This document shows positions 1 through 55,195 of a stretch of 64,000 nucleotides of DNA, in pieces (position 1 is the stretch's first letter; every line of letters begins with the position of its first letter). The DNA is taken from IMG/VR virus record IMGVR_UViG_3300020182_002698. The stretch is one strand, 5' to 3'. The position numbers and the translations under genes are program-made. The notes beneath the pieces were generated by a model. It was not told the DNA's origin. It saw only the letters and a program-made list of their open reading frames with translations, and did not search any database. Source of the stretch: a virus.

Positions 1-2680
1 GAGTTACTGTAGGAGTTACTGTAGAGGTGGGTGTTGGTGACACGGGACCTATTCTTCCCGCACAATTAACATTTATTTCTATTTCAACCTTTAGTTCAAT
101 AAATGCACCATTTAATGGGTCTATATCACCCTCACAATCACCTTTTACCGTAAATATATTATTTAGTAAATCCGTGGTATATGTAATTCCACTAAATTGT
201 GATAACATTCCTTGAACTATAGTTTCCCATTCATTATCTGAAGGAACATCATTTAAGGTATATCCAGTATAAAATGCGTTTTCTATAGTTTGACCTACAC
301 CATAACTACCCCCTGATATCGTGAGAACTCCAGTAAACACCGCGCTTTCTAAGTAACATCCATTTCCTGGTTGATTTAAATCTAAGAAAGCCTCGTTTAA
401 CATTTCATAAAACCCTCTCTTACCTTCTGAACTGGTTACAAACTCTTGCTCACATAAAGTATTAATTACGTAGTCATCAACGTTTTCATCATTACAGGTT
501 ATTGAAACACTCTTAATTATTGAACAACCTTCACTATCTACAATTGTTGCCGTATATGTACCTCCTGAAAGACCTGTTAAATATAAACCTGTCTGCGAAG
601 TAGGTACATTAGCTGACCACGTAATTGTGAATGGTGCGATACCATCTGTTATAGTTAAACTTGCAGTTCCATCATTACCTGAAACACATGGTGTACTATA
701 TAGTACTGCCTGTACTCCTCCTGTCCCTTCTAATATAGTAAAGTACTGTGTTACTGCACATCCTTCATTATCCGTAACAACAACTTGATACGAACCCTGA
801 GGTAAGTTATTTACTAATTCAACATTACTTAAAGACCCAATATTGTTAGAAACTACAGTTCCATCACTAATTTGTGATACCACATAACTAAGTGGATATT
901 TAATCTCAGTAGTACCCGATGAAACCTCTATATTTACCTCTCCATTTGACTGTCCGCAAGTTGTTGCGGTTAATGATGTCGCAACAGTAAACTTATTCTC
1001 ATTTAATATTGTGGCAGTGTCAGTATATTTACACCCATTAATTAATTCTATTCCGATTTGATATGTCCCAGAAGCAAGATTCTCAAAGGTATATGATTGA
1101 TTTGTTGTTGTTACCGTTTGGATATTACCTCCACTACCCGTTAAAGTATACGTTAATGGACCTTGATTGGCATTTACATTTATTTGAATTGACCCATCTT
1201 CACCACAATCAGAATTTTCAGTTATAATACTAACCAAACTAAATCCCGCGGTTGAGGTTAATTGAACGGGTTGGTTAATTGAACATTGTCCAGCATCTTC
1301 AATTAAGATATTATAAGCCCCTCCACATAAACTATTTAACGTAAATGTTGTTGAACCGTTCTGTATTTGTCCCGTACTACCTGAGAAATAATAAGGTAAG
1401 GTACCTCCAGTAACTGTAACAGTGATTGTACCATCACAATCAAAACAAGTTGGTTGTGTTCCTACTATATTTGAAACCCCCAATAATGGTAACTGCGGTA
1501 CTGTAAACCGTTTCGTTATTACACACCCATTCGCATCTGTCACAGTAACCGATGCATCCCCCGCGGGTAAATTAGATACAGATGGGGTAGTATCTAATGT
1601 TGACCAAAAATATGTAAAGGGAGGAGTACCACCTGTAAAGTTAGTAACCTCACCATACCCAGTATTTGCAACTAAACAAGGACTCGCACCTGTTATTAAA
1701 ACTTCATAATCAAAACTAGCAACTGAGTTAATTGTAACGGTATCCGTTTGTCCTGTTTGTCCGTTACCGTCTACTACAATTGCGTAGTATTCACCAGGTA
1801 AAATATCACTATCTATAGTAATTATATTTTCATTATAGAATTCGTCACTAAACTCATTTCCATTATAATAAAGATATACATGATACGGATACGACAATGA
1901 ATTACCTGAAATATTAATAATACCTGTAGTTAAGTTACATGTGATATCAACACCAGATATATCAACCTCAAAACAAGGGTTAACTACCACCTGTGTTGTT
2001 AATTCTCTAGCGGTAGGTAAAGTACTATCACTAATATTAAAAACGTAAGTAGTTGCAGATAAACCACTAAAATTAAATGGACCGTTACCTTGCGTTGTAG
2101 GTATAGTCCCTGGTGAGGAGTTAACTATTAAGTAAGGGTTAGTTCCCCCCTCTACATCAAGATATATTGACCCGTCATCACCACAGTCAGGGGTTCCTGA
2201 AAAAGTCACACTTAACGGTCCTTCATCACAATTGGGTGTACATTCAAAACTTGTAACGTCAATACCTGAATAAGGTAATGTAGTGTTTACGCAAAATACA
2301 ACTCCTAAACTTGAACCTCTTTGTGTGACTCCACAACAATCCATAAATTCATAGTTACCATTTGTTGTACCTGAAACACAATCAGGAACAACAGGTGGAG
2401 TCGGGGTAGGTGTCGGCGTTATAGTAGGTGTCGGTGTTGGGCTTGTGGGGATGTTAGCCGATGCATAACATATAGCACCTGAATCCATATCAATAACTTG
2501 ATATTCAAAACAAGTCCCAGTAATAAACGACTCAACGTCAAATTGAAATGGGAAATCACTATATGTTAGTGAAGACGCAACGTCTGTATATGTTGTTACA
2601 TCACAATCTTTTACACTAACTGTATAATTACCCGGATTTGGGTCTGAAACTCCTAATGATATGTTTACTATTTGACTCAT
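1..2680 (-). CDS. Large putative virion adhesin/fibre protein with ~7 SprB-like repeats and TP linkers; 3' end runs off the window (missing from ORF track)
   Basis: Manual translation from ATG at 2680 (MSQIVNISLGVSDPNPGNYTVSVKDC...) found no stop down to position 1. It contains GGTPPFTYFWS...NLPAGDASVTVTDANGC and similar units (LPQGSYQVVVTDNEGC, LSGGTYTATIVDSEGC) and PTPTPT linkers. Confidence 0.8.
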   Translation of the reverse strand, partial: MSQIVNISLGVSDPNPGNYTVSVKDCDVTTYTDVASSLTYSDFPFQFDVESFITGTCFEYQVIDMDSGAICYASANIPTSPTPTPTITPTPTPTPPVVPDCVSGTTNGNYEFMDCCGVTQRGSSLGVVFCVNTTLPYSGIDVTSFECTPNCDEGPLSVTFSGTPDCGDDGSIYLDVEGGTNPYLIVNSSPGTIPTTQGNGPFNFSGLSATTYVFNISDSTLPTARELTTQVVVNPCFEVDISGVDITCNLTTGIINISGNSLSYPYHVYLYYNGNEFSDEFYNENIITIDSDILPGEYYAIVVDGNGQTGQTDTVTINSVASFDYEVLITGASPCLVANTGYGEVTNFTGGTPPFTYFWSTLDTTPSVSNLPAGDASVTVTDANGCVITKRFTVPQLPLLGVSNIVGTQPTCFDCDGTITVTVTGGTLPYYFSGSTGQIQNGSTTFTLNSLCGGAYNILIEDAGQCSINQPVQLTSTAGFSLVSIITENSDCGEDGSIQINVNANQGPLTYTLTGSGGNIQTVTTTNQSYTFENLASGTYQIGIELINGCKYTDTATILNENKFTVATSLTATTCGQSNGEVNIEVSSGTTEIKYPLSYVVSQISDGTVVSNNIGSLSNVELVNNLPQGSYQVVVTDNEGCAVTQYFTILEGTGGVQAVLYSTPCVSGNDGTASLTITDGIAPFTITWSANVPTSQTGLYLTGLSGGTYTATIVDSEGCSIIKSVSITCNDENVDDYVINTLCEQEFVTSSEGKRGFYEMLNEAFLDLNQPGNGCYLESAVFTGVLTISGGSYGVGQTIENAFYTGYTLNDVPSDNEWETIVQGMLSQFSGITYTTDLLNNIFTVKGDCEGDIDPLNGAFIELKVEIEINVNCAGRIGPVSPTPTSTVTPTVT

Positions 2681-2684
2681 GATA

Positions 2685-5360
2685 TTATGAACAACCACTA
2701 CTTGATGAGAAATCGAATGATATAGTTGTAAGAAGATTTTGGTTAGTTCTACTAAATACCATTGAGTTTATATTTGCACATCCATTTGTACCTGAAAGGA
2801 ATGATGAGCCTCCAGCGGGTATATTTTCTGTTGTTAAGTTTCCACTACCTGATAAACCACACCTTAGGTATGTTATAGATTGTGCACTAAGAGATGTGTT
2901 AGTTATTGTAACATCATTTAAGCAGTTACAGTCCGTTCCACCACACGCAGTTGTCGAATCCGCACTTTCCAACCATGAAGTACCTACAGTCGTATTTTGA
3001 TACGTCTTCATCGATGAAGTGTTACCAACTATAGTGAAACAAATTCCATCGAATCCATCAGTTACTATTATATTATTTTGTGCTCCACCTAAGTAACCAC
3101 CCGCACCTCCTAACAATTCAGGCGCCTGTATTATATCTGACAATTGTACAACTCCACCACCCAATGAACTACCCGATACGAAATCACAGGTCATGTAAAC
3201 AAGTGCGTCTAATTTACTATTAGTAAGACCCCCTACCGTTGTCCCTGTATATGTATCACAACTTCTTAAGACAACATACGCTCCAGAACATTTAGCACCA
3301 GGCGTGTCGGGCTGACAACAAGATGTTCCGTTTGAACTGTGGAATTTTAACAATGCGGTTTCGTCGTAAGTTGGGTCATATACGTAACAGTCTTCAAAAC
3401 TTACATTTTGACTTGCAGTGTTAGTTACGGTGTGTGTGAATTGTAGGTATTCATCACCCGTTCCTGTGGGGTCTACAAATGGTATAAGGTCATTATATTT
3501 TGTAGGCGCTGCCATGAGGTCGCCAGCACCATAATTTTCCTCAAAACATGCGACATATGTATGTACACACCAATATGTTTGACTTTGAGATGATAAGCAA
3601 GTATCACAGTCGAGATATGTATTTTGTGTCGATGGTGTATTGGATGATGTAAATGGTGCAACATTACCTAATGTGTAACATATACTATCTAAGGATACTA
3701 TATCTCCTGTTGTAACACTTAATGAGTCTAATACTTGTGCGTGGTTAAGGACTGTAAGACCTGAGAAGTTGTTTTCACAACAAGGCGTTAATAAGAAAGA
3801 GGTATACGAAGGTGGTGAACTTGTTGGTGTAATTGTTGGTGTAACTGTTGGTGTAATTGTTGGTGTAACTGATGGAGTATTACTAGGAGCAATACATTCA
3901 TTCTCGACTATACAATCATCACAGTTATCATAATACTCTCCAGCGGTGAATACCGCATTGGTAGCTCCGGCTGGGTATGACTCGTCATATGTTACTCTCT
4001 TATAACAATTATTTATTATGAAATCCTGATTTCCTCCAAATTGGAAAGTTATTGCTCCTGTTTCTCCCAATGCTGGCCCATTACTCATATTGGTAACATT
4101 ATAAACTAACCCATCACAACATCCGCTTAATGAAACGTTATTCTCCACACATGCGTTACTAACCTGACAAGTATTACAATCCGTGTAAGTATTATTGGTC
4201 CCAAAAAGATTTGGGTATCCCGCAGTTGTATTGTAATACTCGGTATAACTTGAGTTATATTCTATCCTCTCAAAACATTGGTTCGTTTCAAGCGGACTCT
4301 CTCCTGTGATTGGTGTGATTATATCTCCTATATCCGGTATTGGAAATGTCAGGTTAAATGTCGTGCTCGTTCCCGTGAATATTGTAAACTCTCCCACTCC
4401 AGAACAACATCCACTAAACGAAAACGCATTTATAGGAGCCGCAGGTGGTGTTCCTGACGGCGTTACGGTTATAGATGGAGTTGCGGTTATTGACGGAGTT
4501 GCTGTTATTGTTGGAGTTGCAGTTATCGATGGAGTGGATGTAATTGACGGAGTCACAGTTATTGACGGAGTTGCCGTTATTGTTGGAGTTGCGGTTATTG
4601 TTGGAGTTGCGGTTATTGTTGGAGTTTGAGTTAACGATGGAGTAACACTATTAGACGCACCAGGTGTTGCGGTTATTGATGGAGTTGCAGTAATTGATGG
4701 AGTTGCCGTAATTGATGGTGTAGTAGTTACTGATGGAGTTACGGTAATTGACGGAGTGGTAGTAATCGAAGGAGTCGCACTTATCGAAGCTCCTGGCGTC
4801 GCGGTTACTGATGGAGTTGCGGTAATTGACGGAGTGGTAGTAGGGGTAGGGGGTCCAAACTCTAAATCACAATCTAAAAAAGTAGGTATACATGAAGAAC
4901 ACTTACCATAGTATAAGTTATTAGGTATTCCACTTAAGTCGGTAGGGTCAGTATTTACAACTAAAGAGGTTATTTCATAACATACTCCATAATATAAAAT
5001 ACTATCGTCTATTGGTGTGTCGGTTATTAGTGTATATAAGTGTCCCGAACCTGCATCACATCTATCCCACCGATAACAACTTTGGGATGGGTCCGACATT
5101 AACGATGAGATAAGTAAATTTGCCTCTTCACACGTTTCACAATCAACATACTCAATAAATGTACAATCGTCTCCATTTATTTCATCTAAAACTTTATTAG
5201 TATCTTCATTAATGTAATAACACCCATTATTTATATTATTACATTCAATATCCCAAATCTCACCTGAATTTAGGTGCGTAGTATTATTAAAAGTTAACCT
5301 ATATTCGGATTGGTCGTTACAATTTTGTATGATATAATTTACTGATGTCATGACGTACAA
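2685..5360 (-). CDS. Cys-rich repeat / Thr-Pro-Ser linker protein, putative virion appendage
   Basis: 891 aa ORF with five CC/C..C[YF]..CxxC..C modules and a ~130 aa TPSITA hexapeptide array. It lies in the baseplate operon and overlaps the upstream gene. Confidence 0.6.
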   Translation of the reverse strand: MYVMTSVNYIIQNCNDQSEYRLTFNNTTHLNSGEIWDIECNNINNGCYYINEDTNKVLDEINGDDCTFIEYVDCETCEEANLLISSLMSDPSQSCYRWDRCDAGSGHLYTLITDTPIDDSILYYGVCYEITSLVVNTDPTDLSGIPNNLYYGKCSSCIPTFLDCDLEFGPPTPTTTPSITATPSVTATPGASISATPSITTTPSITVTPSVTTTPSITATPSITATPSITATPGASNSVTPSLTQTPTITATPTITATPTITATPSITVTPSITSTPSITATPTITATPSITATPSITVTPSGTPPAAPINAFSFSGCCSGVGEFTIFTGTSTTFNLTFPIPDIGDIITPITGESPLETNQCFERIEYNSSYTEYYNTTAGYPNLFGTNNTYTDCNTCQVSNACVENNVSLSGCCDGLVYNVTNMSNGPALGETGAITFQFGGNQDFIINNCYKRVTYDESYPAGATNAVFTAGEYYDNCDDCIVENECIAPSNTPSVTPTITPTVTPTITPTSSPPSYTSFLLTPCCENNFSGLTVLNHAQVLDSLSVTTGDIVSLDSICYTLGNVAPFTSSNTPSTQNTYLDCDTCLSSQSQTYWCVHTYVACFEENYGAGDLMAAPTKYNDLIPFVDPTGTGDEYLQFTHTVTNTASQNVSFEDCYVYDPTYDETALLKFHSSNGTSCCQPDTPGAKCSGAYVVLRSCDTYTGTTVGGLTNSKLDALVYMTCDFVSGSSLGGGVVQLSDIIQAPELLGGAGGYLGGAQNNIIVTDGFDGICFTIVGNTSSMKTYQNTTVGTSWLESADSTTACGGTDCNCLNDVTITNTSLSAQSITYLRCGLSGSGNLTTENIPAGGSSFLSGTNGCANINSMVFSRTNQNLLTTISFDFSSSSGCS
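4455..4853 (-). repeat. Degenerate 18-bp tandem repeat encoding (TPSITA/TPTITA)n
   Basis: About 20 hexapeptide units visible in the translation; the DNA units differ mostly at synonymous positions. Confidence 0.9.
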
Positions 5361-20807: not shown

Positions 20808-20841
20808 AACAATAAATATTCGATATAATATTTTTATAAAT

Positions 20842-20867
20842 AAAACCCACCTTTTTAGATGGGTTTT
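20842..20867 (-). terminator. Intrinsic terminator after nrdA
   Basis: Minus-strand RNA AAAACCCAUCU-AAAA-AGGUGGGUUUU followed by AUUUAU. Confidence 0.75.
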
Positions 20868-20873
20868 ATTTTA

Positions 20874-22580
20874 TTATCCTTCACAAGCAACACATTGTAA
20901 GTCGTTGAGGTTTAATTTCTTCCTTGAGAAAGCCTGAGCTGAGTTCATCGAATGTTGATAATATAGTGTTTTTACTCCTAGTTTCCAAGCGTCAATTAAC
21001 AGTTTATTTATATCTTTTGTTGGCATATCAGGTGAAACCATTAAGTTTAATGACTGTGATTGGTCAATATAGTCTTGTCTGATAGCCGCTTGGTTGATTA
21101 TGGACGCTTGATTTATTTCGGCAAATGTTCTAAATACATCTTTTTGCTCTTTAGTTAAAAAATCTAAGTGTTGAGCTGAACCATCTCTTTTCTTAATACT
21201 GTCCCACACTTGTTTGGTATCTTTACCTAACTCTTGTAATAGTTTTTTAAGTACCGGATTTTTAATAGTAACTTTTAATTTAGCAACGTCTTTAACATAA
21301 CAATTAGACCATATAGGTTCTATTGATTGTGATACTTGTCCTAAAATAAACGCTGATGAGGTAGTAGGTGCAATTGCATTTAGAGTAACATTTCTTCTAC
21401 CATAACCTTCAAGATATTCAGGTTCTCCAAAAATTTTAGCCAAGTCTTCAGAAGCCTTATATGACTTTTCTTTTATCAATTTAAAAACTTCTACATTAAG
21501 TTTAGCGCTTTCTTTAGTGTCAAAAGGTAAGTTTTTAGATTGTAATAGTGAGTGCCAACCTAAAACACCTAAACCTAACGCTCTTTGTCTTTTTGCGAAG
21601 TTATATGCCTTCTCCAAATAAAAGAATCCTCTTTTACCTTCTATAGTACCATCGTCTCTAATATTTTCAATTTTTGTTAAAAATTCACTTACAACGGCAT
21701 CTAAAAAGAAGGTCATTATCTCAACCGCATCTGTATTTTTCCACTCATCATAATGAAGTACATTCATGGATGAAAGAACACATACGAATGACTCCTCATC
21801 TGAGTTATGTAAAGCTATTTCCGAACAAAGGTTAGAGTTATAAATTTTAGCACCTTTATCTCTATAAACATCGGGAGCTTTATTATTCATAGTATCGTTA
21901 AACATAATATAAGGATATCCAATTTCCCCCCTTCTTTGTATTACTTTAGCCCAAATCGCTCTTTTTTCATTATCCCCACCTATCATATCATTCATAAACT
22001 CATCAGTAACAGTTACCGCATGTGTTAAGTCCTGAATAGGAAAACCTTCGGTACCAATTTCTAAAAATTCCATAATATCAGGATGTTCTACAGGTAAATA
22101 TGGAGAGAATCTACCTCTTCTAGTAGACCCCTGTGAAATATTATCGACAACACTTTCAAATAAGTTCATAAAATGAACTGAGCCTGGAGCATGTCCATTG
22201 TCTGTAATCTCAGCACCTCTTTCTCTAATATTACCAAAGTAACCTGAGGTACCTCCACCCATTTTACTCATTTCGCCCACTTCTGCTTGTGTATATAATA
22301 TTGACTCTATGTTGTCACATATATTTGACCCAAAACAACTGACAGGTAGACCTCTTTTTTTACCAAAATTAGCCCAAACAGGTGAAGATAGTGAATACCA
22401 TCCTCGACCCATATATTCATAAAATTTATCCGCGAACCCTTCAATTCCTAGTATTTTTTCAGCGTGATTAGCTATAGTGCGAATTCTATCTAACGCCTCT
22501 TCTCCGTCACTAAGATATCCTCTACGAAGAAAGGTAATGGACTCCTCATTTATCCATTCAAAATTTTCTCTATTTTCCAT
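20874..22580 (-). CDS. nrdA: Ribonucleotide reductase class I alpha subunit, no ATP-cone
   Basis: LPVSCF, SNLCSEI (N-C-E catalytic triad), VCVLSS, IAPTTSS, KTLYY and C-terminal CVACEG. Confidence 0.97.
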   Translation of the reverse strand: MENRENFEWINEESITFLRRGYLSDGEEALDRIRTIANHAEKILGIEGFADKFYEYMGRGWYSLSSPVWANFGKKRGLPVSCFGSNICDNIESILYTQAEVGEMSKMGGGTSGYFGNIRERGAEITDNGHAPGSVHFMNLFESVVDNISQGSTRRGRFSPYLPVEHPDIMEFLEIGTEGFPIQDLTHAVTVTDEFMNDMIGGDNEKRAIWAKVIQRRGEIGYPYIMFNDTMNNKAPDVYRDKGAKIYNSNLCSEIALHNSDEESFVCVLSSMNVLHYDEWKNTDAVEIMTFFLDAVVSEFLTKIENIRDDGTIEGKRGFFYLEKAYNFAKRQRALGLGVLGWHSLLQSKNLPFDTKESAKLNVEVFKLIKEKSYKASEDLAKIFGEPEYLEGYGRRNVTLNAIAPTTSSAFILGQVSQSIEPIWSNCYVKDVAKLKVTIKNPVLKKLLQELGKDTKQVWDSIKKRDGSAQHLDFLTKEQKDVFRTFAEINQASIINQAAIRQDYIDQSQSLNLMVSPDMPTKDINKLLIDAWKLGVKTLYYQHSMNSAQAFSRKKLNLNDLQCVACEG

Positions 22581-22595
22581 TTTAGTTATATCGTT

Positions 22596-23876
22596 TTAAA
22601 ATAAATCGTTTGATGTGATTGATTTTGATTTTTTACTATAGTTAATACTTCTTTTATTAAAGAAGTCTGTGTGTTTTGTAGTTAAAATCTCATCGTCAAA
22701 CCATTCCGTGGTTTCTAATATTGTTTCATTAACTTCAAAAACACTATCAATACCAATTGAATTTAAAGATACATTAAATCTGTGTTTAATAAACTCCAAT
22801 GTTTGTTTTTTAGTGAGAAATTCTAAGTCTCCCTCTTCAAAAATCCAATTTACCACTTCTTGCTCAGCCTCATACGCTTCGTGAGTTGAGATTATTAAAT
22901 CCTCCACTAGTTCTTGTGTCCACCAATCGGGGTTTTCTTGTTTGATTAAGTTAACCAACTCAAATCCAAATTCAGCGTGAATATTTTCTTCTTTCGATGT
23001 CGCTTCAACCGCATTACTAATCCCTTTCAATTTGTTTTTATGTTTATTAAATGACATAATAACTAAAAATTGTGAAAATAATGATACATTTTCAATAAAC
23101 ATAGAGAACAATACAATCGATTCAAAGTATTCTTTGTTTTCTACCGCTTTTGAGTTAGTAATAGATTTTTCTAAGTATTTAATTCTTCTTCTAATTGCGG
23201 GTACTTCAAGTAAATTTTCAAATTTTTTATTTAAACCTAAAAGCTGTATTAGGTGTGAATAAGCATCCGCATGTCTAACCTCTGATTCCGCAAAAGTAGC
23301 CCCTACACTTCCAATCTCAGGTTTAGGCATTCTTTTGTATATGTCACCCCAAAATGTTTTAACTGCAATTTCTATTTGTGATATTGCTAACATAGCTCTT
23401 TCAACTGCAGATTTTTCTTTCTTATTTAAATGGACCTTATAGTCTTGTATGTCGGACGTAAAATTAAATTCTGTGTGAACCCAATATGAATGTCTTATAG
23501 CGTCTACATATTCATTAAGATTAGGGTAATCATATGGTTTTAGATTTGTTCTTTTAGAAAAAATATTGGGTCTACTTTTTGAACGGTAAATGATGTACTC
23601 TTTCGCAACGTCATTCAAACCATTATCCATTAATTTATTTTCCACCATGTCGTGTATTTCATCAACATGAGGAACGTGTTCTTTATTATTCCTAAAAATC
23701 GCTTTAGTGGTTAGTCTAGCGATTTTTTCAGCCATTTCCTCATCTACCATTTCGATGCTTTTCATCGCCTTTATGACCGCCCTTTCAATTTTTTCAGAAT
23801 GAAATGGTACTTTATCTCCACTTCTTTTTACGACATAGCGTATATCTCTATCAATTTTATCTATTAATCTTTCCAT
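22596..23876 (-). CDS. nrdB: Ribonucleotide reductase beta subunit, class Id-like, with N-terminal ATP-cone
   Basis: N-terminal VVKRSGDKVPFHSEKIERAV...VENKLM..VAKEYIIYR is an ATP-cone. The ferritin-like core has QIEIAVKTFWG, ESEVRHADAY, IENVSLFSQF, EENIH and the tail SITSNDLF. Confidence 0.95.
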   Translation of the reverse strand: MERLIDKIDRDIRYVVKRSGDKVPFHSEKIERAVIKAMKSIEMVDEEMAEKIARLTTKAIFRNNKEHVPHVDEIHDMVENKLMDNGLNDVAKEYIIYRSKSRPNIFSKRTNLKPYDYPNLNEYVDAIRHSYWVHTEFNFTSDIQDYKVHLNKKEKSAVERAMLAISQIEIAVKTFWGDIYKRMPKPEIGSVGATFAESEVRHADAYSHLIQLLGLNKKFENLLEVPAIRRRIKYLEKSITNSKAVENKEYFESIVLFSMFIENVSLFSQFLVIMSFNKHKNKLKGISNAVEATSKEENIHAEFGFELVNLIKQENPDWWTQELVEDLIISTHEAYEAEQEVVNWIFEEGDLEFLTKKQTLEFIKHRFNVSLNSIGIDSVFEVNETILETTEWFDDEILTTKHTDFFNKRSINYSKKSKSITSNDLF

Positions 23877-23899: not shown

Positions 23900-25276
23900 T
23901 TAATTACTCTCCTTTTGTTTTTTTCTATCAAGGAGTTCTTTAATTCGTTTCCTATTGTTTTCTTCTTTTTGTTCTTCCAAACCTAAGAAGGTTACACTTT
24001 GTTCAGTATCTATAACTAACATCTCGTTATCAAATTTACAATTTTCAAACACAACACCGTCTTTCCCAATTCTAGACTTAGTGATGGCGATTGTAGCTAA
24101 ATTCATTTCTTTTTGCTGTAAGGATTTCGCGACAGAAATAATTACGTGCCCTACTTGAGCCTTTTTAATCGAGCCTCCCATTTGGTCAGTAGTAACCACA
24201 TCAGAAGATATAGAACTTCTATTACCTTGGGTTGCTGTCCATCCTACCAAATCCAATTCGTGACACATCGATTCAAATCCTCTCATTACTGAACCCTCAC
24301 TTTTCCACTCATCACCTAAGTTTTTGTCAGGAACTACACAATCAATATAATCTAGTACTACCATGTCAACTTTATTACCTTCTGCAGTCATCTTACGAAT
24401 TTGATTTTTAATCTGATTCATAGTAAGTGTATCTGACGGAAGTTTCTTTAAGATTAACTTATTTGGTGTATTTTCACGAATATCTTTAATTTTGTCCATG
24501 ACTTTGTCCTTATGTAAAGACAATAAATCAGGAGCTATTTCAGTCCATAACGTAAAATGTTTTCTTTGTATAATTTTAGGGTTATCCTCAAAGAATATCT
24601 GAAGTACGTTATAACCTAAATTAAATGCGTGGTTAGAGATTTTAGTTAGGAGGGTGGATTTTCCAACACCTGTAGGTGCTAATATAACTCCCAATTCTCC
24701 TTTCGCCATACCTCCTTTCAAAAGGTTATCAATACCTGGTATACCCATAGGTATCGGATGTCTAAAATCTTCTTCTAAAACGTCATCTAAGTTAGCAAAA
24801 ACATCTGCAGTTCCAGTGTCTACCTCACCAACTTGTAATGCTTCTCTAACCATTTCCTCCAAATGGTCATAACTCTCAAAATCACCTTTATCAATGATTT
24901 TCTGAGCCTTACCCATAACCTTTTGTAGTTCTTGTTGTTTACAGAATTTTAAAGCCTTTTCTTGTACAAAAATTTCACCTTCCGATGGGGCTTCCTTAAT
25001 TTGTTCTACCATATCCAAAACCATTTTTTGAGCCATGGGTGAGGACACTTCAGACTTAATAAGTTGTTCTAAGGTGTTGTAAGAAGGAGTATGTTCATAC
25101 TTTATATAATACTCCTTAATAATTTGCATAATCAGTTTAAAGTACTGATTGTCAAAGTATTTTGGTTCAATTACATCAACAATAGACGCCGCAAAGTCCT
25201 TGTAAAGAACGATGTTATTAAGTAGTTGATTTTGAAATGTGTTTCCGAGATAACCAAAATTTTTTTCCTTAGACAT
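23900..25276 (-). CDS. Replicative DNA helicase, DnaB / T4 gp41-like
   Basis: Walker A APTGVGKST, Walker B VVLDYID, TATQGNR and KSRIG motifs. Confidence 0.93.
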   Translation of the reverse strand: MSKEKNFGYLGNTFQNQLLNNIVLYKDFAASIVDVIEPKYFDNQYFKLIMQIIKEYYIKYEHTPSYNTLEQLIKSEVSSPMAQKMVLDMVEQIKEAPSEGEIFVQEKALKFCKQQELQKVMGKAQKIIDKGDFESYDHLEEMVREALQVGEVDTGTADVFANLDDVLEEDFRHPIPMGIPGIDNLLKGGMAKGELGVILAPTGVGKSTLLTKISNHAFNLGYNVLQIFFEDNPKIIQRKHFTLWTEIAPDLLSLHKDKVMDKIKDIRENTPNKLILKKLPSDTLTMNQIKNQIRKMTAEGNKVDMVVLDYIDCVVPDKNLGDEWKSEGSVMRGFESMCHELDLVGWTATQGNRSSISSDVVTTDQMGGSIKKAQVGHVIISVAKSLQQKEMNLATIAITKSRIGKDGVVFENCKFDNEMLVIDTEQSVTFLGLEEQKEENNRKRIKELLDRKKQKESN

Positions 25277-25315
25277 GTTTATCAGTTTTTAAAATACGTG
25301 TCTTAATAAATATAA

Positions 25316-25771
25316 TCAAACTAGGTTATATCCCGCGATTTCATATGTCAATTTGTCAGTAGAAAAAACATTAGTTAATGCCTTTAATACAGACTTCAAA
25401 TGAGGTCTTACGTCAACGGTATACCTTACTTTGGGTGGGTAAACTTTCCCATCCCATATACGATGGTATATAACATCATCATTCAATTTAATGTATACGT
25501 TAAAATCTTCTGCCTCGTCCGTCATAGACGTCTCCATAATCTTTGGGTCAGCAGCAATTTGATACTCGTTATCTAACATATAGGTTATAGATTTCATTTT
25601 AAGGTCGTTATGAATCTCCTCTTGAATTCCCATAACTGTCTCGTACAACTCAAAACTATTTTTCGCGTTTTTGTTATAACTTTTAACATTATAATATCTC
25701 TGAACAATGATATTATCATTAAGAGTTAGAAGAAACTCCATTTTAGTCATTTCACTTTTTTCCTTACTCAT
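25316..25771 (-). CDS. Hypothetical protein in the replication operon
   Basis: 151 aa ORF between the exonuclease and helicase genes. Confidence 0.55.
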   Translation of the reverse strand: MSKEKSEMTKMEFLLTLNDNIIVQRYYNVKSYNKNAKNSFELYETVMGIQEEIHNDLKMKSITYMLDNEYQIAADPKIMETSMTDEAEDFNVYIKLNDDVIYHRIWDGKVYPPKVRYTVDVRPHLKSVLKALTNVFSTDKLTYEIAGYNLV

Positions 25772-25789
25772 TTTTTAATTTTTTTTAAG

Positions 25790-26797
25790 TTAGTTTTTTT
25801 TAAATCTTCTTTTTTCTTTTCTTGTTAGTTTCATAAATGGGGTAAGAAAATAAACCCATGCGTTGTCAGTTTTAGGTAGGTATTTGAATATTCCATCATC
25901 CATCATCATCCTCATCAAATTTTGATACCCCCTACCTTCAGGGTCAATATCTTCAGAGTAATAAAGTTCAACTAGTTCTTTCGCTTCTTCAGTTAACAAA
26001 GGTACTGATAAATCCACAAGTTTCCTATTAATAACATAAAATTCATCACCATATACCCCTCTCTTAGTTTTACCCGATAGTAGGTTTTGTAACGCTCTGT
26101 TATCCTTATCATTTTCGTGTAGTTTTTCACCTTTTTCTAAAATATCGTCAACAGAGACCACGGAATCAACTATCTCAGGGAAAAGTTTTACAAAAGTTTT
26201 TTCACCAAAATAGTAAATACCATCAATATTGTCGGACTTATCTCCTGATATAATTTTAAAAGTAGAAACATTTTGATGGGGTATTGATATATCTTTCAAT
26301 TTAACTTTATCTCCGTACTTAATCATTTGTTTCTGTGTTGGAGAATATATTTGTACTTTTTCAGATATTAGTTGTGTTAGGTCTTTATCCGCAGAAAATA
26401 TAGTTTTGTTTTCATCCTCAGAGATATGACAATAATACGCTATCATATCATCTGACTCATTACCATCAACTATAATCTGACGTATAAACATTTCCTCAAG
26501 ATACTCTTTTACTCTTTTGAGTTGCCATTCAAATGATTGTTTTTGAATATCATTAAGTCTGTTATACCTTCTATTTTCTTTATATTCTGCGAAAATTTTC
26601 TTCCTCTGTATTGAGTTATCATTTCCGTCCCAAAAAACGATTACCTTATCATAGTTATACTCTGAAATAAATCTACGTAAAGTATTAACAAAGTGATATA
26701 TACCACCAATATGGTTACCTTTATGATAATACTCACGTACTCCATGATAACCTATCTTAAATAGGTTATTTCCATCCACTAATAAGGTCTTAGTCAC
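25790..26797 (-). CDS. 5'-3' exonuclease / flap endonuclease (T4 RNase H-like)
   Basis: LLVDGNN, FWDG, YKENR, ESDD, SADKDL and GDKSDNIDG motifs of the FEN/5'-nuclease family. Confidence 0.93.
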   Translation of the reverse strand: MTKTLLVDGNNLFKIGYHGVREYYHKGNHIGGIYHFVNTLRRFISEYNYDKVIVFWDGNDNSIQRKKIFAEYKENRRYNRLNDIQKQSFEWQLKRVKEYLEEMFIRQIIVDGNESDDMIAYYCHISEDENKTIFSADKDLTQLISEKVQIYSPTQKQMIKYGDKVKLKDISIPHQNVSTFKIISGDKSDNIDGIYYFGEKTFVKLFPEIVDSVVSVDDILEKGEKLHENDKDNRALQNLLSGKTKRGVYGDEFYVINRKLVDLSVPLLTEEAKELVELYYSEDIDPEGRGYQNLMRMMMDDGIFKYLPKTDNAWVYFLTPFMKLTRKEKRRFKKN

Positions 26798-26807
26798 ATT
26801 AAAATAC

Positions 26808-27812
26808 TTAAAGAATTAAACTTTCTTCTTCCAACTTAAAGTCACTACCTGTACCAATAATATCTTTCCAATATTCAGAGTTTTCAGATTTATACTTTTC
26901 GATAGATTTTTTTTCCTCAGAGGAATCCTTTCCGGGTAAAAACCCGTGAGCAGTAACTAATATTCTACCGTCTTCATAACCTAACCCATTAATGTGGTTT
27001 TTCATAACTGAGACCTTAGTTCTAGTTGCAAATTTTACTTTTCTTTTATCTTTAACCGCAGTTATCTTTGTAGTACCCGCATTTTTTTGATTTCCAAAAA
27101 GAAAAACTAATGATGAGTTTAACCAAATAGCCTCTCCTCCTTTAGCTTTAATCTTAGGCTGACCAAAAGGATTATCTGGAAGTTCAACCCATGGTTGGTT
27201 AACAATTACTAAAGTATTTTCGTGTTTTGAATCTGACCTACGAGAACCTGATATTCTTTGGTTTATTCCCATACCTATCTTATCTGCCAAAACTGCCGCA
27301 TTATGTTGCTTACCACCTTTACCGTCATATGTCATCTTACATGGAACTGAACCAACTGAATCCCATAAAAATAGTAAGTCATAATCCAAATCTCCACTAC
27401 TTTGAGCATCTAACAATTCATTAATAAAATTAGTAATTTGTTCAATATATTCAAAGTTATTATTAAAAAGGAAAAATCCATCCCAATCTAATTCTCCCGT
27501 TTCTTTATCAACAACTTCTTCACATTCAAAACCCATAAGTTTTGCATGCTCAAAAGACCATTTCTGCTCTGTTATTATAAAAACAGGGAGTATACCTTTT
27601 TTTTGTGCGTCAACAGCAGCTTTAACAAGTGCTGTAGTTTTTCCTGTATCCGAGTGACCTAAAAACATATTAAGGTGACCCATTGCCGGTCCAGGTACCC
27701 CTACTGCATCTAAGAAATCAGTACCTAAATCATAAAACCTTTGCGGTTTAAACTTAGCTGATGAAGAAAATTTCTTCTTAATATCTTTAAAGTCTTTCTT
27801 TTTAATTGCCAT
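26808..27812 (-). CDS. recA: RecA/UvsX-like recombinase
   Basis: Walker A GHSDTGKTT, LFLWDSVGS, VIVNQ, GGEAIW and VMKNHING motifs. Confidence 0.9.
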   Translation of the reverse strand: MAIKKKDFKDIKKKFSSSAKFKPQRFYDLGTDFLDAVGVPGPAMGHLNMFLGHSDTGKTTALVKAAVDAQKKGILPVFIITEQKWSFEHAKLMGFECEEVVDKETGELDWDGFFLFNNNFEYIEQITNFINELLDAQSSGDLDYDLLFLWDSVGSVPCKMTYDGKGGKQHNAAVLADKIGMGINQRISGSRRSDSKHENTLVIVNQPWVELPDNPFGQPKIKAKGGEAIWLNSSLVFLFGNQKNAGTTKITAVKDKRKVKFATRTKVSVMKNHINGLGYEDGRILVTAHGFLPGKDSSEEKKSIEKYKSENSEYWKDIIGTGSDFKLEEESLIL

Positions 27813-27828
27813 TTTTTTTTAATTAAAA

Positions 27829-27862
27829 TAATGGTGAGGAGGATTATCCCTCCTCACCATTA
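27829..27862 (-). terminator. Perfect 14-bp hairpin between ssb and recA (terminator or processing site)
   Basis: TAATGGTGAGGAGG-attatc-CCTCCTCACCATTA; followed by UUUUAAUU on the minus strand. Confidence 0.75.
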
Positions 27863-27875
27863 ACATTTGTAATCT

Positions 27876-28730
27876 TTAGAAAGGAAGATTTTCATCGACT
27901 TTAGTAGTCGACTGTGGGTCCTTTTCTTCATTAATTTTTACTTTCTCATCACCACCACCAATCGTTTCAATAGTATTGTCTCCATAAACAAACTTTTTAA
28001 GTTCTGAGTCCCATACAGGTGTCTCTCCCCTTGCGACCGCTTCAAGATACTCTACAGGTCTTTGTGCGTACACATCAGACCACGTCATTTCATCCTCCAT
28101 CCATTCTTTCATCGTATCACTATCATCACTTAGAGGTGTTGGGTCATCGTACATAATAGTTTGAACTACAGTGTACTCAATACCTGAGTTAGTTTTAGAT
28201 TTAGAAAGTTCGACAATTAAGTCTCTGCCCTCTTGAGAGTCAGTAACGTCTCCCTTAGCTCTCCATATTGGGATAATCTTATCCAAGATACCTTCTTGTT
28301 TATAGTTATCCTTAAATCTCCAAAATTTAACCCCGTCTGATTCATTATCACGGTCAACAACCTTTACTATATAAAACTTGCGTGGACGGTACTGCATAGC
28401 CAGTTTTTTATCTGACTCTTTTCCTGTTGACATAAGTTCTTCGTAGACTTCAGTCAATGGGGAGCGTTCACCATCATTTTTACCTGGGTCGTATAGTTTA
28501 ACCCATCTACCGTCTACTTGAACCTCGTGAAACCAAACTTCCTTAAATGGTGATGAACCATCGGGTGTTGGTAGTATCCTTATCTTAGACTGTCCGGATT
28601 TAGTACCTTTAGGTAGGTACGTAGTGAAGTACTTCTTCAACCTTTGCTCTTGAGTCATTCCATCCCCGTTACCGCGAGATGTGACATTTTTGTCGTACTG
28701 AGCTAGTACTGCGTCGAGTGCGTTTGCCAT
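27876..28730 (-). CDS. Single-stranded DNA-binding protein, T4 gp32-like (true start probably ATG 28730, MANALDAVL)
   Basis: KIRILP..DG..PFKEVWFH, FYIVKVVDR, VKFWRF, EGRDLIV and an acidic C-tail ending DENLPF. The track start at 28772 overlaps the promoter. Confidence 0.85.
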   Translation of the reverse strand: MANALDAVLAQYDKNVTSRGNGDGMTQEQRLKKYFTTYLPKGTKSGQSKIRILPTPDGSSPFKEVWFHEVQVDGRWVKLYDPGKNDGERSPLTEVYEELMSTGKESDKKLAMQYRPRKFYIVKVVDRDNESDGVKFWRFKDNYKQEGILDKIIPIWRAKGDVTDSQEGRDLIVELSKSKTNSGIEYTVVQTIMYDDPTPLSDDSDTMKEWMEDEMTWSDVYAQRPVEYLEAVARGETPVWDSELKKFVYGDNTIETIGGGDEKVKINEEKDPQSTTKVDENLPF

Positions 28731-28769
28731 TTTTCTTTTATTCTTTAAAAATTTATCTATTATTCTATA

Positions 28770-28800
28770 CAAATATAAATGATTTTTAACTTAAGTCAAA
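28770..28800 (-). promoter_or_regulatory. Bacteroidota primary-sigma promoter (-33/-7) for the ssb-recA-exo-helicase-nrd operon
   Basis: Minus strand TTTG-N19-TATATTTG matches the Bacteroides/Flavobacterium consensus TTTG-N19-21-TAnnTTTG. Confidence 0.8.
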
Positions 28801-28863: not shown

Positions 28864-29484
28864 TTACATGAGACCTTCATCTTCAAATGGTTGGTCGAAC
28901 GATTTTTTAATATTGCCGTCCGAATAACTTTCAATGTCATCACTTGTAAGTACGTATTCGTTTTTTCCTGTCTTTTCTAAATCTTCTTGCTTATCCATAA
29001 AGAAGTCAGTTAGTTTTTGATTATATGGATAACTATCTAAACTCCTTAACTGTAATTTTTCTTCAGGAGATTTTTGTCTATATTTTTCTATTTTAGTTTC
29101 CAACTGATTAATTCGGTCTAATATACTATCCATCTCTCCGAGTTTACTTGTTAAATCATCTAATTTACCAAACATAGTATCCATATATTCATCCTGTTTA
29201 TTAGACATATCTTTTTGTGTCGTCACTAAATCTGTAATGTCTAACTCTTCGGTACCGACTTCATCGGTAACATCAACTTCATCATCACCACTAACAACTT
29301 CAACGTCTGGGTCATCACTTACATCCACAGGTTCAGGGACTTCGTCAACCTCTAAGTCATCTGTCTGAGCAATGTCTTCACCACCTTCATCAGGTAAGTC
29401 CGTAACTTCCTCTTGCTCAAAAACATAATTATTTATGTTTTGATGTCTTTTTATTTCTTTTAATATTTTTTTATCTATTGACAT
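28864..29484 (-). CDS. Acidic / coiled-coil hypothetical protein, possible head scaffold or internal protein
   Basis: 206 aa; basic leader KKILKEIKRHQNINNYVFEQ, then a very acidic stretch, then a heptad-like region. Confidence 0.45.
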   Translation of the reverse strand: MSIDKKILKEIKRHQNINNYVFEQEEVTDLPDEGGEDIAQTDDLEVDEVPEPVDVSDDPDVEVVSGDDEVDVTDEVGTEELDITDLVTTQKDMSNKQDEYMDTMFGKLDDLTSKLGEMDSILDRINQLETKIEKYRQKSPEEKLQLRSLDSYPYNQKLTDFFMDKQEDLEKTGKNEYVLTSDDIESYSDGNIKKSFDQPFEDEGLM

Positions 29485-53635: not shown

Positions 53636-55195
53636 ATGGGTACTAAAAGGGCATTAAATAAAATAACTGATATAGAAAATCAGATTATAAGTGAAGGGAT
53701 AAAAAGAAAAGTATCACCGAACGTCCCAAAAGAAATTTTAAAAGAAATGAAAAAAATAGGTATCGAAAGATTACCTTACTCTTATTCAGCCTTAGAACGT
53801 TTTATAGATAAAGAAACTATGAACGTACACTACAATAAACATTATAAAGGTTATGTTAATAAACTTAATGATGCGATAAAAGATAAAAAGGGTAAGGACA
53901 AAAAATTAAAAGATATTGTGAAAACAATATCAATGTACGACAGAACTGTAAAAAATAATGCTGGCGGAGCGTTCAACCACGCATTGTTTTGGAAAATGTT
54001 AAGTCCTAAAAGGCAAAGATGTTCAGGAGAAATCTATGAGAAAATTATTAAAGAGTATAAAACGTTTAATAACTTTAAAAAGTTATTTGAGTCCGCAGCT
54101 CAAAAAAGATTTGGTTCAGGGTGGGTATGGCTTGTTTTAACAAAAAATAATAGGTTAAAAATAATGACTACTGCAAATCAAGACAACCCTCTTATGAATA
54201 CCATTAAAGACGGTGGACTTCCATTATTAGGTTTGGATTTATGGGAACACTCTTATTATTTAAAATATAGAAATAAAAAAGACGATTATATAAAAAACTT
54301 TTGGTCAGTAGTGAATTGGGATTTTGTGAACAACTTATATACATCTAACCCTAAATCCTCAATAAAGGAGTCGTTTAATAAAAAAAATCTTATTGTTGAA
54401 ATTGAGAGTCAGGGGTGTAATTCAAGACAAGTTAAACAGACCATAGAATTATTTAACACCAATCCTCAAATAAAGTGGAAATATCGTACCGTAATTGATA
54501 AGGTTTTTAAAGAAATCTTTAAAGATTATTGGAGAGAAAAAGAAGGAGAGCAGTTATCGGGTATATATGACTTTGAATATAAAGGGAGTGTTGAAGGAGG
54601 TCGGTCGGTATTAAATAAAATCAATACAAACGCAACTACATTTTGTATTTTAAAAAATGACATTAATATTACTTTAAAACATTATGGACACCCTCCGATT
54701 AGTTTTTACGGAAAAAATAAAAATGAACAAATAAAGGAATTATATCGATTTTTAAAATATATCATCCATTGGAAAGATAGTCTATTTAAAAATACATCAA
54801 ACACTTTTGACTCTATGTATACCGCGGTTAATAGAAAAAATAAACAAGGTGATAAAACTGAAAATTTAGCGGTTAAAGAATTACAAAAAGTGTTCGGAGT
54901 TTCTAACGTAAAAAAAGTTGGTGAATTAGGTAGTGTTATAGATGCTATCGGTGGTGTTGATGCGATTATAAGGACAGATAATGGAGATAAAACTGTACAA
55001 ATAAAACCATTTAGAGATTATATTATTGAAGATGGGAAAATAACTATGGTCGGAACAGGTGTTATAAAACAGTATAAAACCGATATGTTAGTATTTCATA
55101 ATAAAAATAAAGGAATAGTGGTATTTGATAATAACAACACCCAAATTAAAAACGGGAAATATGTTTTTGATAAAGAGTCTCAATATAAGTCTTGA
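53636..55195 (+). CDS. sodA: Mn-type superoxide dismutase fused to a C-terminal PD-(D/E)xK-like domain
   Basis: LPYSYSALE, HYNKHYKGY, NNAGGAFNHALFW, GSGWVWL, NQD and LDLWEHSYY give all four metal ligands plus the Mn-type GG/Q signature; ~280 extra C-terminal residues. Confidence 0.85.
   Translation: MGTKRALNKITDIENQIISEGIKRKVSPNVPKEILKEMKKIGIERLPYSYSALERFIDKETMNVHYNKHYKGYVNKLNDAIKDKKGKDKKLKDIVKTISMYDRTVKNNAGGAFNHALFWKMLSPKRQRCSGEIYEKIIKEYKTFNNFKKLFESAAQKRFGSGWVWLVLTKNNRLKIMTTANQDNPLMNTIKDGGLPLLGLDLWEHSYYLKYRNKKDDYIKNFWSVVNWDFVNNLYTSNPKSSIKESFNKKNLIVEIESQGCNSRQVKQTIELFNTNPQIKWKYRTVIDKVFKEIFKDYWREKEGEQLSGIYDFEYKGSVEGGRSVLNKINTNATTFCILKNDINITLKHYGHPPISFYGKNKNEQIKELYRFLKYIIHWKDSLFKNTSNTFDSMYTAVNRKNKQGDKTENLAVKELQKVFGVSNVKKVGELGSVIDAIGGVDAIIRTDNGDKTVQIKPFRDYIIEDGKITMVGTGVIKQYKTDMLVFHNKNKGIVVFDNNNTQIKNGKYVFDKESQYKS

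Follow-up and report, generated by a model that had tools for sequence, protein, structure and literature searches.

The 64,000-nt stretch of viral DNA analysed here (the window), part of IMG/VR record IMGVR_UViG_3300020182_002698, carries an nrdB-nrdA operon that very probably specifies a functional class Id RNR of a jumbo phage, with the ATP-cone borne on the beta subunit and working as in Leeuwenhoekiella blandensis. The record is a jumbo-phage genome of 270 kb (88% complete), probably that of an uncultured tailed phage with hosts among the marine Bacteroidota, and profile searches find in it one RNR and one ATP-cone only. The features of the operon and its surroundings are given in Table 1.

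Table 1. Features of the nrdB-nrdA operon and adjoining DNA, in window coordinates.
Feature	Coordinates	Strand	Evidence
Intrinsic-terminator-like hairpin, 3′ of nrdA	20838..20871	-	15-bp stem, then U-rich tract
nrdA, NrdAi minimal catalytic subunit without ATP-cone, 568 aa (P0002)	20874..22580	-	TIGR02510, 6DQX, 6DQW
nrdB, NrdBi radical-generating subunit with N-terminal ATP-cone, 426 aa (P0001)	22596..23876	-	Pfam, 5OLK, AF2 model
Disordered C-terminal tail of NrdB, residues 399-426	22599..22682	-	Low pLDDT, conservation
Ferritin-like metal-binding core of NrdB, residues 109-383	22728..23552	-	Mapping to L. blandensis, Foldseek
ATP-cone of NrdB, residues 14-100, probable ATP/dATP overall-activity switch	23577..23837	-	PF03477
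Replication module, co-oriented, upstream of nrdB	23900..28772	-	Pfam and PHROGs matches

The start of nrdA lies 15 nt past the nrdB stop codon, and nrdB itself starts 23 nt past the upstream helicase gene; the coordinates of this two-gene operon agree with those given in an earlier reading of the DNA (the sequence-only reading). The operon is the last part of a replication module that encodes a gp32-like SSB, a UvsX-like recombinase, a 5′-3′ exonuclease, an unknown protein of 151 aa and a DnaB-like helicase. RNA folding of the hairpin beyond nrdA gave -18.2 kcal/mol (z = -5.8), with none of 200 shuffles equally stable, and the structure is predicted to mark the 3′ end of the operon. This hairpin, and not the 'late promoter' motif TATTTAT, was used to set the operon boundary; the motif is not enriched across the window (52 found, 52.1 expected). 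A scan for sigma-70 promoters performed at about chance level (50 found versus 43 expected) and was left unused. The phage also encodes ThyA as well as Trx and Grx, the latter two as separate genes about 190 kb from the operon (G000:C1:225352-225830). ThyX was searched for and not found, and the 270-kb record contains no match to PF07972 (NrdI), an absence that is not absolute at 88% completeness.

At the family level, the Pfam and TIGR matches of both ORFs are strong and beyond chance. The domains recognised in NrdA are the RNR barrel and, with a weak match, an all-alpha domain; the length of the protein fits the minimal architecture of class Id catalytic subunits (median ~565 aa). It passes the TIGR02510 'NrdE-prime' model with 757 bits (cut-off 602), and its best PDB matches are A. 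ureae NrdA 6DQX (E = 1e-208) and 6DQW (E = 3e-175). The catalytic residues are present (C81, N248/C250/E252 and Y540-Y541), as is a C-terminal CVAC redox pair. A match to PF03477 (ATP-cone) is lacking in NrdA, while NrdB begins with one (E = 4.5e-21; 75.6 bits, cut-off 25.8) and continues with Ribonuc_red_sm (E = 3e-57). This arrangement had been noted in the sequence-only reading, as had the assignment to class Id (NrdAi/NrdBi) of the L. blandensis type; both stand, and all features that define the type at the sequence level are present.

The closest PDB match to NrdB is that of L. blandensis (5OLK, E = 3e-156), which aligns from residue 10 to 426 with 55% identity over 393 aligned columns. 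The next matches are likewise class Id proteins (6SF4, 8DQ3 and 6CWO/6CWP/6CWQ), and the following family appears only at 1e-26. An AF2 model of NrdB (pLDDT 88.6) returned 5OLK as the top Foldseek match (TM 0.84), and its core superimposes on the Mn-loaded L. blandensis protein 6SF5 with a TM of 0.98 and an rmsd of 1.0 Å. Six putative metal ligands, four carboxylates and two histidines, were recognised as E169, E199, H202, E262, E297 and H300, corresponding to E170, E200, H203, E263, E298 and H301 of L. blandensis (PMC6754362). All six, together with Y206, are invariant among 48 diverse NrdBi sequences. The first ligand lies in the motif QIEIAVKTFWG, which begins at residue 167, and is followed four residues later by K173, as the sequence-only reading had it; at least 90% of the 48 sequences share this lysine. 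By alignment, K173, W176, Y206 and T293 are the counterparts of L. blandensis K174, W177, Y207 and T294, W176 and T293 being assigned from their aligned positions. The lysine four residues after ligand 1 (Lys71 in Flavobacterium johnsoniae, Lys174 in L. blandensis) is a proposed superoxide attractor, the threonine partner (Thr191 and Thr294, respectively) keeps the tyrosine off the metal site, and the tryptophan of helix 1 (Trp177 of L. blandensis) is specific to NrdBi. The C-terminal tail has pLDDT values of 53, 48 and 52 over its last three 10-residue blocks, falling below 50 at residues 409-418. It contains the PCET tyrosine Tyr413 and ends in the alpha-binding sequence SITSNDLF, also pointed out earlier, which aligns with SITSDDLF of L. 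blandensis. In the tail, the 48 NrdBi all share Y413, D404 and F406, at least 90% of them have F426, and dN is ~0 within the clade.

The cone is, to judge from its sequence conservation, intact and kept by purifying selection. Its dN/dS is 0.047 over 34 unsaturated pairs and 0.057 between the window and its clade, many pairs being saturated at synonymous sites; values for the core, for comparison, are 0.02-0.04. All 79 extracted nrdB genes of the clade encode 426 aa with no indels, and the cone is modelled at a pLDDT of 78-95. Searched alone, it has no PDB matches other than the ATP-cones of 5OLK, 5IM3, 9D3X and 8P23, those of 5OLK, 5IM3 and 8P23 having been described as two-nucleotide binders (PMC11226230). 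Nucleotide-binding residues were assigned from the description of PcNrdD and from alignments to solved ATP-cones. The residues predicted to accommodate two nucleotides are K17-R18 as a phosphate clamp, Y97, which would stack against the second dATP, and R98; K17-R18 and Y97 align with Lys7/Arg8 and Tyr83 of PcNrdD, and also with the PaNrdA and LbNrdB cones. K17, R18, K29, I30, E79, Y94 and Y97 show no variation in either the viral clade or Flavobacteriaceae, so the alignment of binding residues proposed in the sequence-only reading argues against a degenerate cone. In L. blandensis, the dATP-induced beta4 interface involves Asp73, Met80, Lys89, Ile92, Ile93 and Arg95 (PMC5794259), the phage counterparts of which are D76, M83, K92, I95, I96 and R98. 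Five of these (D76, M83, K92, I95 and R98) count among the invariant positions, with conservation of at least 95% across the viral clade and at least 90% across Flavobacteriaceae; I96 is present in the window protein and is the exception.

Identity to characterised class Id enzymes is 55-60%, and the metal, oxidant and dATP inhibition proposed here rest on this homology. The predicted dimanganese site of NrdB would be oxidised by superoxide, with H2O2 less efficient, giving a Mn(III)/Mn(IV) cluster that would initiate the radical with neither a tyrosyl radical nor NrdI. ATP on the cone would let beta2 pair with alpha2 in an active enzyme. Two dATP per cone would most likely promote cone-cone contacts and the formation of beta4, as in L. 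blandensis, switching the enzyme off. NrdA would be re-reduced via its C-terminal cysteine pair, probably by the phage Trx or Grx.

The L. blandensis NrdAi/NrdBi enzyme (5OLK, 6SF4, 6SF5; Rozman Grinberg et al. 2018 eLife, 2019 JBIC) shares with the phage both the nrdB-nrdA operon and the domain order of NrdB, namely cone, short linker, ferritin core and disordered tail. The ligands, the Lys, Trp, Tyr and Thr residues and the beta4 interface residues are alike, and the C-terminus is nearly identical; the cone is ~39% identical (counted from the 5OLK alignment) and has two short deletions of 3 and 4 residues. Unlike the flavobacterial enzyme, the phage version is encoded by a jumbo phage, belongs to a separate viral clade and is known from sequence. 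The class Id enzyme of F. johnsoniae (6CWO/6CWP/6CWQ beta, 6DQW alpha; Rose et al. 2018, 2019) has the same Glu/Lys(+4)/Tyr/Thr signature, a minimal cone-less alpha and no NrdI, and its core matches that of the phage with a TM of 0.94-0.96 and 43-44% identity. Its beta subunit has no ATP-cone and thus, unlike that of the phage, no cone-type control of overall activity. A functional cone on a class Id beta is also found in Facklamia ignava Grx::ATP-cone::NrdBi (Rozman Grinberg et al. 2018 JBC), where it binds two dATP to give inactive tetramers and the cofactor is Mn(III)/Mn(IV). Glutaredoxin is fused to NrdB in F. ignava, whereas Grx and Trx are separate genes in the phage.

The viral NrdB sequences form a clade with 100% support, which branches as sister to the Flavobacteriaceae clade rather than within it, and Salicola phage SCTP-2 falls in a 96%-supported group shared with the window clade. 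This tree, built from a quick search, contains NrdBi relatives only and no Ia/Ib/Ic outgroup; it places the window protein among NrdBi in a separate viral clade. Placement with class Id rather than Ia, Ib or Ic comes from the PDB ranks and Foldseek. Full-length cone-NrdBi proteins occur in at least 87 deposited genomes of isolated phages, and the fusion in at least 502 IMG/VR contigs. Carriers include the strictly lytic Herelleviridae Romulus and Remus (Staphylococcus phages), as well as Sporosarcina phage Lietuvens and the jumbo phage SCTP-2. The virulent phages Romulus, Remus and Stau2 (all three Staphylococcus phages of the Herelleviridae), Lietuvens and SCTP-2 have a cone-bearing nrdB followed by nrdA as in the window, the identity being 46-50% with 96-97% of the query covered; these phages infect other hosts (Bacillota, Gammaproteobacteria), and database records mostly label the proteins 'class Ia' or give a generic beta-subunit name. 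Viruses are already listed in the 2018 discovery paper, and according to a 2026 preprint those with subclass Id are more abundant in the ocean than those with Ia (PMC12918982); neither ATP-cones nor allostery are covered by Dwivedi et al. 2013 (PMC3653736). The suggestion in the sequence-only reading that this enzyme is unusual for a lytic phage is therefore not upheld. As the arrangement is known in bacteria and common in phages, the result is a sound annotation and no surprise. Megablast with the operon as query gave no match among deposited phage genomes, a collection from which near-identical records may be left out; a close cultured relative of the clade is thus lacking there.

Given the position of the viral clade, an origin of the operon as cellular DNA, by host contamination or very recent host capture, is exceedingly improbable. 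The nearest named cellular homologues are indeed from Flavobacteriaceae (56-61% identity for NrdB, 61-67% for NrdA), but phage helicase and baseplate genes flank the operon in 54-78 of 80 related viral loci (the helicase being syntenic in 78) and in none of 80 cellular loci. Identity to GTDB species genomes never exceeds 61%, and this ceiling, with the tree placement, led us to reject recent capture from Flavobacteriaceae. There is likewise very little chance that NrdB is a diferric-tyrosyl protein, as in classes Ia and Ib, or a Mn/Fe protein, as in Ic, rather than a dimanganese one. Y206 occupies the radical position and the first ligand is Glu, as in Ic; however, classes Ia and Ib pair Tyr with Asp and class Ic pairs Phe with Glu, while class Id is recognised by the Tyr/Glu pairing together with Lys at +4 and a Thr partner (PMC8463856). 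The best sequence and structure matches are all class Id, with Foldseek core TM values of 0.94-0.98 for class Id, 0.79 for Ic and ~0.73 for Ia, and the search for NrdI was negative.

The remaining alternatives concern the cone. That it is a decaying relic without nucleotide binding is highly improbable: comparison of the phage clade with Flavobacteriaceae leaves just 20 invariant columns out of 88 in the cone, while the core has 150 out of 287, and no other support was found, whereas the score far above the profile cut-off, the dN/dS of ~0.05, the indel-free genes, the confident model and the invariant key binding and interface residues all speak against decay. An activator-only or differently tuned cone, which would bind ATP or dATP without shut-off and leave a class Id enzyme with no true off-switch, is unlikely. 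An unthrottled dNTP supply would profit a lytic phage, and the RNR of T4 is established to be dATP-insensitive; that enzyme is said, since work by Berglund in 1972, to have an ATP-cone yet no dATP inhibition. The low identity of the phage cone to that of L. blandensis leaves room for such tuning, and the cones of F. ignava and L. blandensis themselves differ in ATP stoichiometry (PMC6187632). Against this, the residues of the dATP cone-cone interface and the stacking aromatic are conserved in both the viral clade and Flavobacteriaceae, constraint on the cone matches that on the core, and the nearest solved cones include documented two-nucleotide binders. A dATP off-switch of the L. blandensis type thus remains the preferred reading.

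The phage clade also conserves a gene for an Fe/Mn-SOD fused to an uncharacterised C-terminal domain of ~285 aa, found in all five related contigs. The SOD gene is absent from the three isolated phages with cone-NrdBi that were checked, and on these counts the idea that SOD and cone-NrdBi are functionally linked in general was dropped. SOD inhibits assembly of the class Id cofactor in vitro (PMC8463856), and this, with the SOD of the clade, was counted against the proposed cofactor activation during infection. It is very unlikely that the SOD fusion controls assembly of the phage or host class Id cofactor, whether by removing O2.- or by supplying H2O2; if true, it would, together with the dATP-sensing cone, provide a two-level (redox and nucleotide) control of dNTP supply during infection.

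The operon leaves views of RNR classes and of phage nucleotide metabolism unchanged, and its chief value is in correct annotation. Many deposited phage genomes label the enzyme 'class Ia', and in these it is of the Mn-dependent, NrdI-independent class Id type, with the switch on the small subunit. The large uncultured marine jumbo-phage lineage described here, with at least 502 IMG/VR contigs, has long kept its own branch of cone-bearing NrdBi under strong constraint, which argues that virulent phages benefit from dNTP control that responds to dATP and ATP, and keep it.

The only ribonucleotide reductase (RNR) of the 270,383 bp record, and its only ATP-cone, are specified by two adjacent genes, with 15 nt between the nrdB stop codon and the nrdA start. 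Both ORFs lie exactly where the sequence-only reading had placed them, and Pfam searches confirm the domain arrangement it described. NrdB begins with an ATP-cone (residues 14–100; E 4.5e-21, 75.6 bits, cut-off 25.8) followed by an RNR small-chain domain, the core (residues 109–383; E 3e-57), whereas the Pfam matches of NrdA are limited to the RNR barrel and a weak all-alpha domain; it lacks an ATP-cone. NrdA also matches the NCBIfam model TIGR02510 ('NrdE-prime') at 757 bits (cut-off 602). The motif QIEIAVKTFWG (from residue 167) and the C-terminal SITSNDLF reported for NrdB are both present.

Features in the window and, where prefixed G000:C1, in whole-record coordinates
Feature	Coordinates	Strand	Details
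Fibre-like open-ended ORF	2–2698	-	899 aa; SprB repeats, PF13573, E 1e-15
Hairpin, 15-bp with U-rich tract	20838–20871	-	directly after nrdA; -18.2 kcal/mol, z = -5.8
NrdA (P0002)	20874–22580	-	568 aa
NrdB (P0001)	22596–23876	-	426 aa
ORF, no Pfam/PHROGs match	25316–25771	-	151 aa; replication module
ORF, no Pfam/PHROGs match	28864–29484	-	206 aa; replication module
Fe/Mn-SOD-domain protein	53636–55195	+	519 aa; SOD domain residues 44–233
ThyA	G000:C1:206922–207938	-	phage-encoded
Glutaredoxin and thioredoxin, adjacent	G000:C1:225352–225830	-	97-aa and 107-aa frames; outside window

When all PDB sequences were searched, the closest match to NrdB was the cone-bearing class Id beta of Leeuwenhoekiella blandensis (LbNrdB, 5OLK; E 3e-156, residues 10–426), followed by cone-less constructs of the same protein (6SF4, 6SF5) and the Aggregatibacter class Id beta (8DQ3). 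Flavobacterium johnsoniae class Id beta (6CWO, 6CWP, 6CWQ) matched at E 1e-88 to 1e-97, and the first family outside class Id was far behind (E 1e-26). For NrdA, the top match was the class Id alpha of Actinobacillus ureae (6DQX, 1e-208), ahead of that of F. johnsoniae (6DQW, 3e-175). With L. blandensis residue numbers (PMC5794259, PMC6754362) mapped via the NrdB–PDB alignment, all six metal ligands are found in NrdB (E169, E199, H202, E262, E297, H300), together with the class-Id-specific Lys173, the NrdBi-specific Trp176, and the non-radical Tyr206 with its partner Thr293. Among 48 aligned NrdBi (34–92% identity), the six ligands, Tyr206 and the C-terminal PCET Tyr413 are invariant, and Lys173 and Trp176 are kept in at least 90%. 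NrdA carries the catalytic C81, N248/C250/E252, the Y540–Y541 pair and a C-terminal CVAC redox pair. The AlphaFold2 model of NrdB (mean pLDDT 88.6) returned 5OLK as the top Foldseek match (TM 0.84, 393 columns); its core superimposes on Mn-loaded LbNrdB (6SF5) with a TM of 0.98 and rmsd of 1.0 Å, and scores 0.94–0.98 against class Id cores, while class Ic reaches 0.79 and class Ia roughly 0.73. Every sequence-level hallmark of class Id listed in the review by Ruskoski and Boal (PMC8463856) is seen, namely Tyr/Glu pairing, Lys at +4, a Tyr–Thr pair, an alpha of about 565 aa that lacks a cone, and the absence of NrdI, which was not found in the 88% complete record. A grouping of NrdB with class Ia or Ib, the outcome that would have told against the original assignment, is not what the best sequence and structure matches give, and the proposal of a class Id RNR with the cone on beta is supported by sequence, predicted structure and selection.

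Selection on the cone was assessed by Nei–Gojobori dN/dS over 80 phage-clade genes, all of 426 codons without indels. The cone gave 0.057 when the window gene was compared with the rest and 0.047 over the 34 pairs in which dS was not saturated; the core gave 0.043 and 0.018. Saturation of synonymous sites in many pairs makes these figures rough, yet constraint is plainly evident. Cone columns invariant both across the viral clade and across 77 homologues, mostly from Flavobacteriaceae, include the K17–R18 clamp, K29–I30, D76, M83, K92 and the last-helix residues Y94, I95, Y97 and R98; the clamp and Y97 are predicted nucleotide-binding residues. Equivalents of L. blandensis Asp73, Met80, Lys89, Ile92 and Arg95, which form the dATP-induced cone–cone interface of the beta4 tetramer (eLife, PMC5794259), are among them. 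Searched alone against the PDB, the cone matched only four entries: LbNrdB (5OLK), P. aeruginosa NrdA (5IM3) and the anaerobic RNRs 9D3X and P. copri 8P23. The enzymes of 5OLK, 5IM3 and P. copri are described as binding two nucleotides per cone (PMC11226230), and Tyr97 aligns with the Tyr of P. copri NrdD against which the second dATP stacks. The cone is confidently modelled, with the expected beta-hairpin and four helices. Taken together, the dN/dS values, invariant columns, PDB matches and predicted fold indicate an intact cone and make very unlikely the degeneracy that the sequence-only reading had named as a refuting outcome.

By homology, the Mn(II)2 form of NrdB would react with superoxide (or, at lower efficiency, with H2O2) to give the oxidised Mn(III)/Mn(IV) cluster, which would initiate the Cys radical in NrdA via W176 and Y413 of beta and Y540–Y541 of alpha; the CVAC tail would then be reduced by phage thioredoxin or glutaredoxin, the likely reductants of NrdA. 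ATP on the cone would favour active alpha2beta2, and two dATP per cone would bring about cone–cone contacts, and with them beta4 and the inactive complexes alpha2beta4 or alpha4beta4. In the leading alternative, the phage cone would sense nucleotides yet leave the enzyme switched on, as happens in T4; beside the predicted off-switch this appears improbable.

Relatives of NrdB number in the thousands in a large protein collection, and the best 120 of these combine cone and core, with a length of 426 aa in nearly every case (84–99% identity), several being from TARA ocean data. Relatives occur in at least 502 IMG/VR contigs; nrdB precedes nrdA in 79 of 80 examined, and the operon has a phage helicase, an exonuclease and baseplate genes as neighbours in 54–78 of 80 viral loci versus none of 80 cellular loci. 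The best matches among 185,579 GTDB species genomes (NrdB 56–61%, NrdA 61–67% identity) are mostly Flavobacteriaceae. A core-domain tree built quickly by maximum likelihood (121 rows, SH-aLRT support, rooted at the midpoint, with no outgroup from classes Ia, Ib or Ic) gave the viral clade 100% support and grouped it with other cone-bearing representatives and the jumbo Salicola phage SCTP-2 (96%), beside, not inside, a Flavobacteriaceae-dominated clade (97%), next to which Staphylococcus phage Romulus and Sporosarcina phage Lietuvens branch. This placement identifies the operon as a long-standing viral lineage, and recent host capture is rejected. Many NrdBi representatives (P0125–P0260) are 560–1300 aa long and match the query in two or three stretches, with breaks near residues 196–203 or 297–303, adjoining metal-ligand motifs, the pattern expected of intein insertions; the NrdB of the window has no such insertion.

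The source record (IMG/VR) is linear, 33% GC and 88% complete (CheckV); the window corresponds to its bases 12013–76012. Upstream of nrdBA and co-oriented with it are genes for a gp32-like SSB, a UvsX-like recombinase, a 5'-3' exonuclease and a DnaB-like helicase; gp25-like and gp6/J-like baseplate genes lie downstream. As a hairpin follows nrdA, and other strong terminator-like sites occur only upstream of the UvsX-like gene, nrdBA probably closes the replication transcription unit. The hairpin was not reported by a consensus terminator scan. The heptamer TATTTAT, a candidate late-promoter core, occurs 52 times in the window (52.1 expected by chance); any signal must lie in its position relative to gene starts, not in enrichment. 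Neither ThyX nor a tyrosine integrase was found in the 88% complete record; absence of the integrase fits a virulent lifestyle without proving it, the record being incomplete. SprB repeats are those of Bacteroidota gliding adhesins. Their presence in a fibre-like ORF and the near absence of Shine-Dalgarno-like motifs (4% of genes versus 9% at a control position, genome-wide) hint weakly at a Bacteroidota host; the nearest cellular NrdB homologues are mostly Flavobacteriaceae.

The record's only superoxide dismutase (SOD) is part of a longer protein, in which the ~285 aa after a complete SOD domain have no Pfam match. The same long ORF is present in all five related viral contigs that extend far enough, and in none of three isolated phages with cone-NrdBi. 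In vitro, assembly of the class Id cofactor is inhibited by SOD (PMC8463856), so it is mildly intriguing that one phage conserves both this gene and an RNR predicted to need superoxide for activation. To our knowledge, however, SODs are also present in every aerobic host with a class Id RNR, and no functional link between the two genes was seen in this analysis.

The sequence-only reading took an off-switch on beta combined with Mn dependence to be unusual for a lytic phage. However, a tblastn search of 50,697 deposited phage genomes with NrdB returned 87 records covering at least 80% of the query, which must take in part of the cone as the core is 76% of NrdB. They include the strictly lytic Herelleviridae Romulus, Remus, Stau2 and vB_SscM-1, as well as Lietuvens and the 440-kb SCTP-2, and most were deposited as 'class Ia'. 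In Staphylococcus Twort-like phages (e.g., PP995776.1, MW430345.1, KX171212.1) the cone-bearing class Id-like NrdB is labelled 'ribonucleotide reductase of class Ia (aerobic) beta subunit', probably a systematic mis-annotation. A 2026 preprint also reports that, across the global ocean, viruses with subclass Id RNRs consistently exceed Ia carriers in abundance (PMC12918982), and with the 87 records this leaves the supposed unusualness unsupported. The operon adds another case of the known cone-NrdBi type, in an uncultured marine jumbo-phage lineage.
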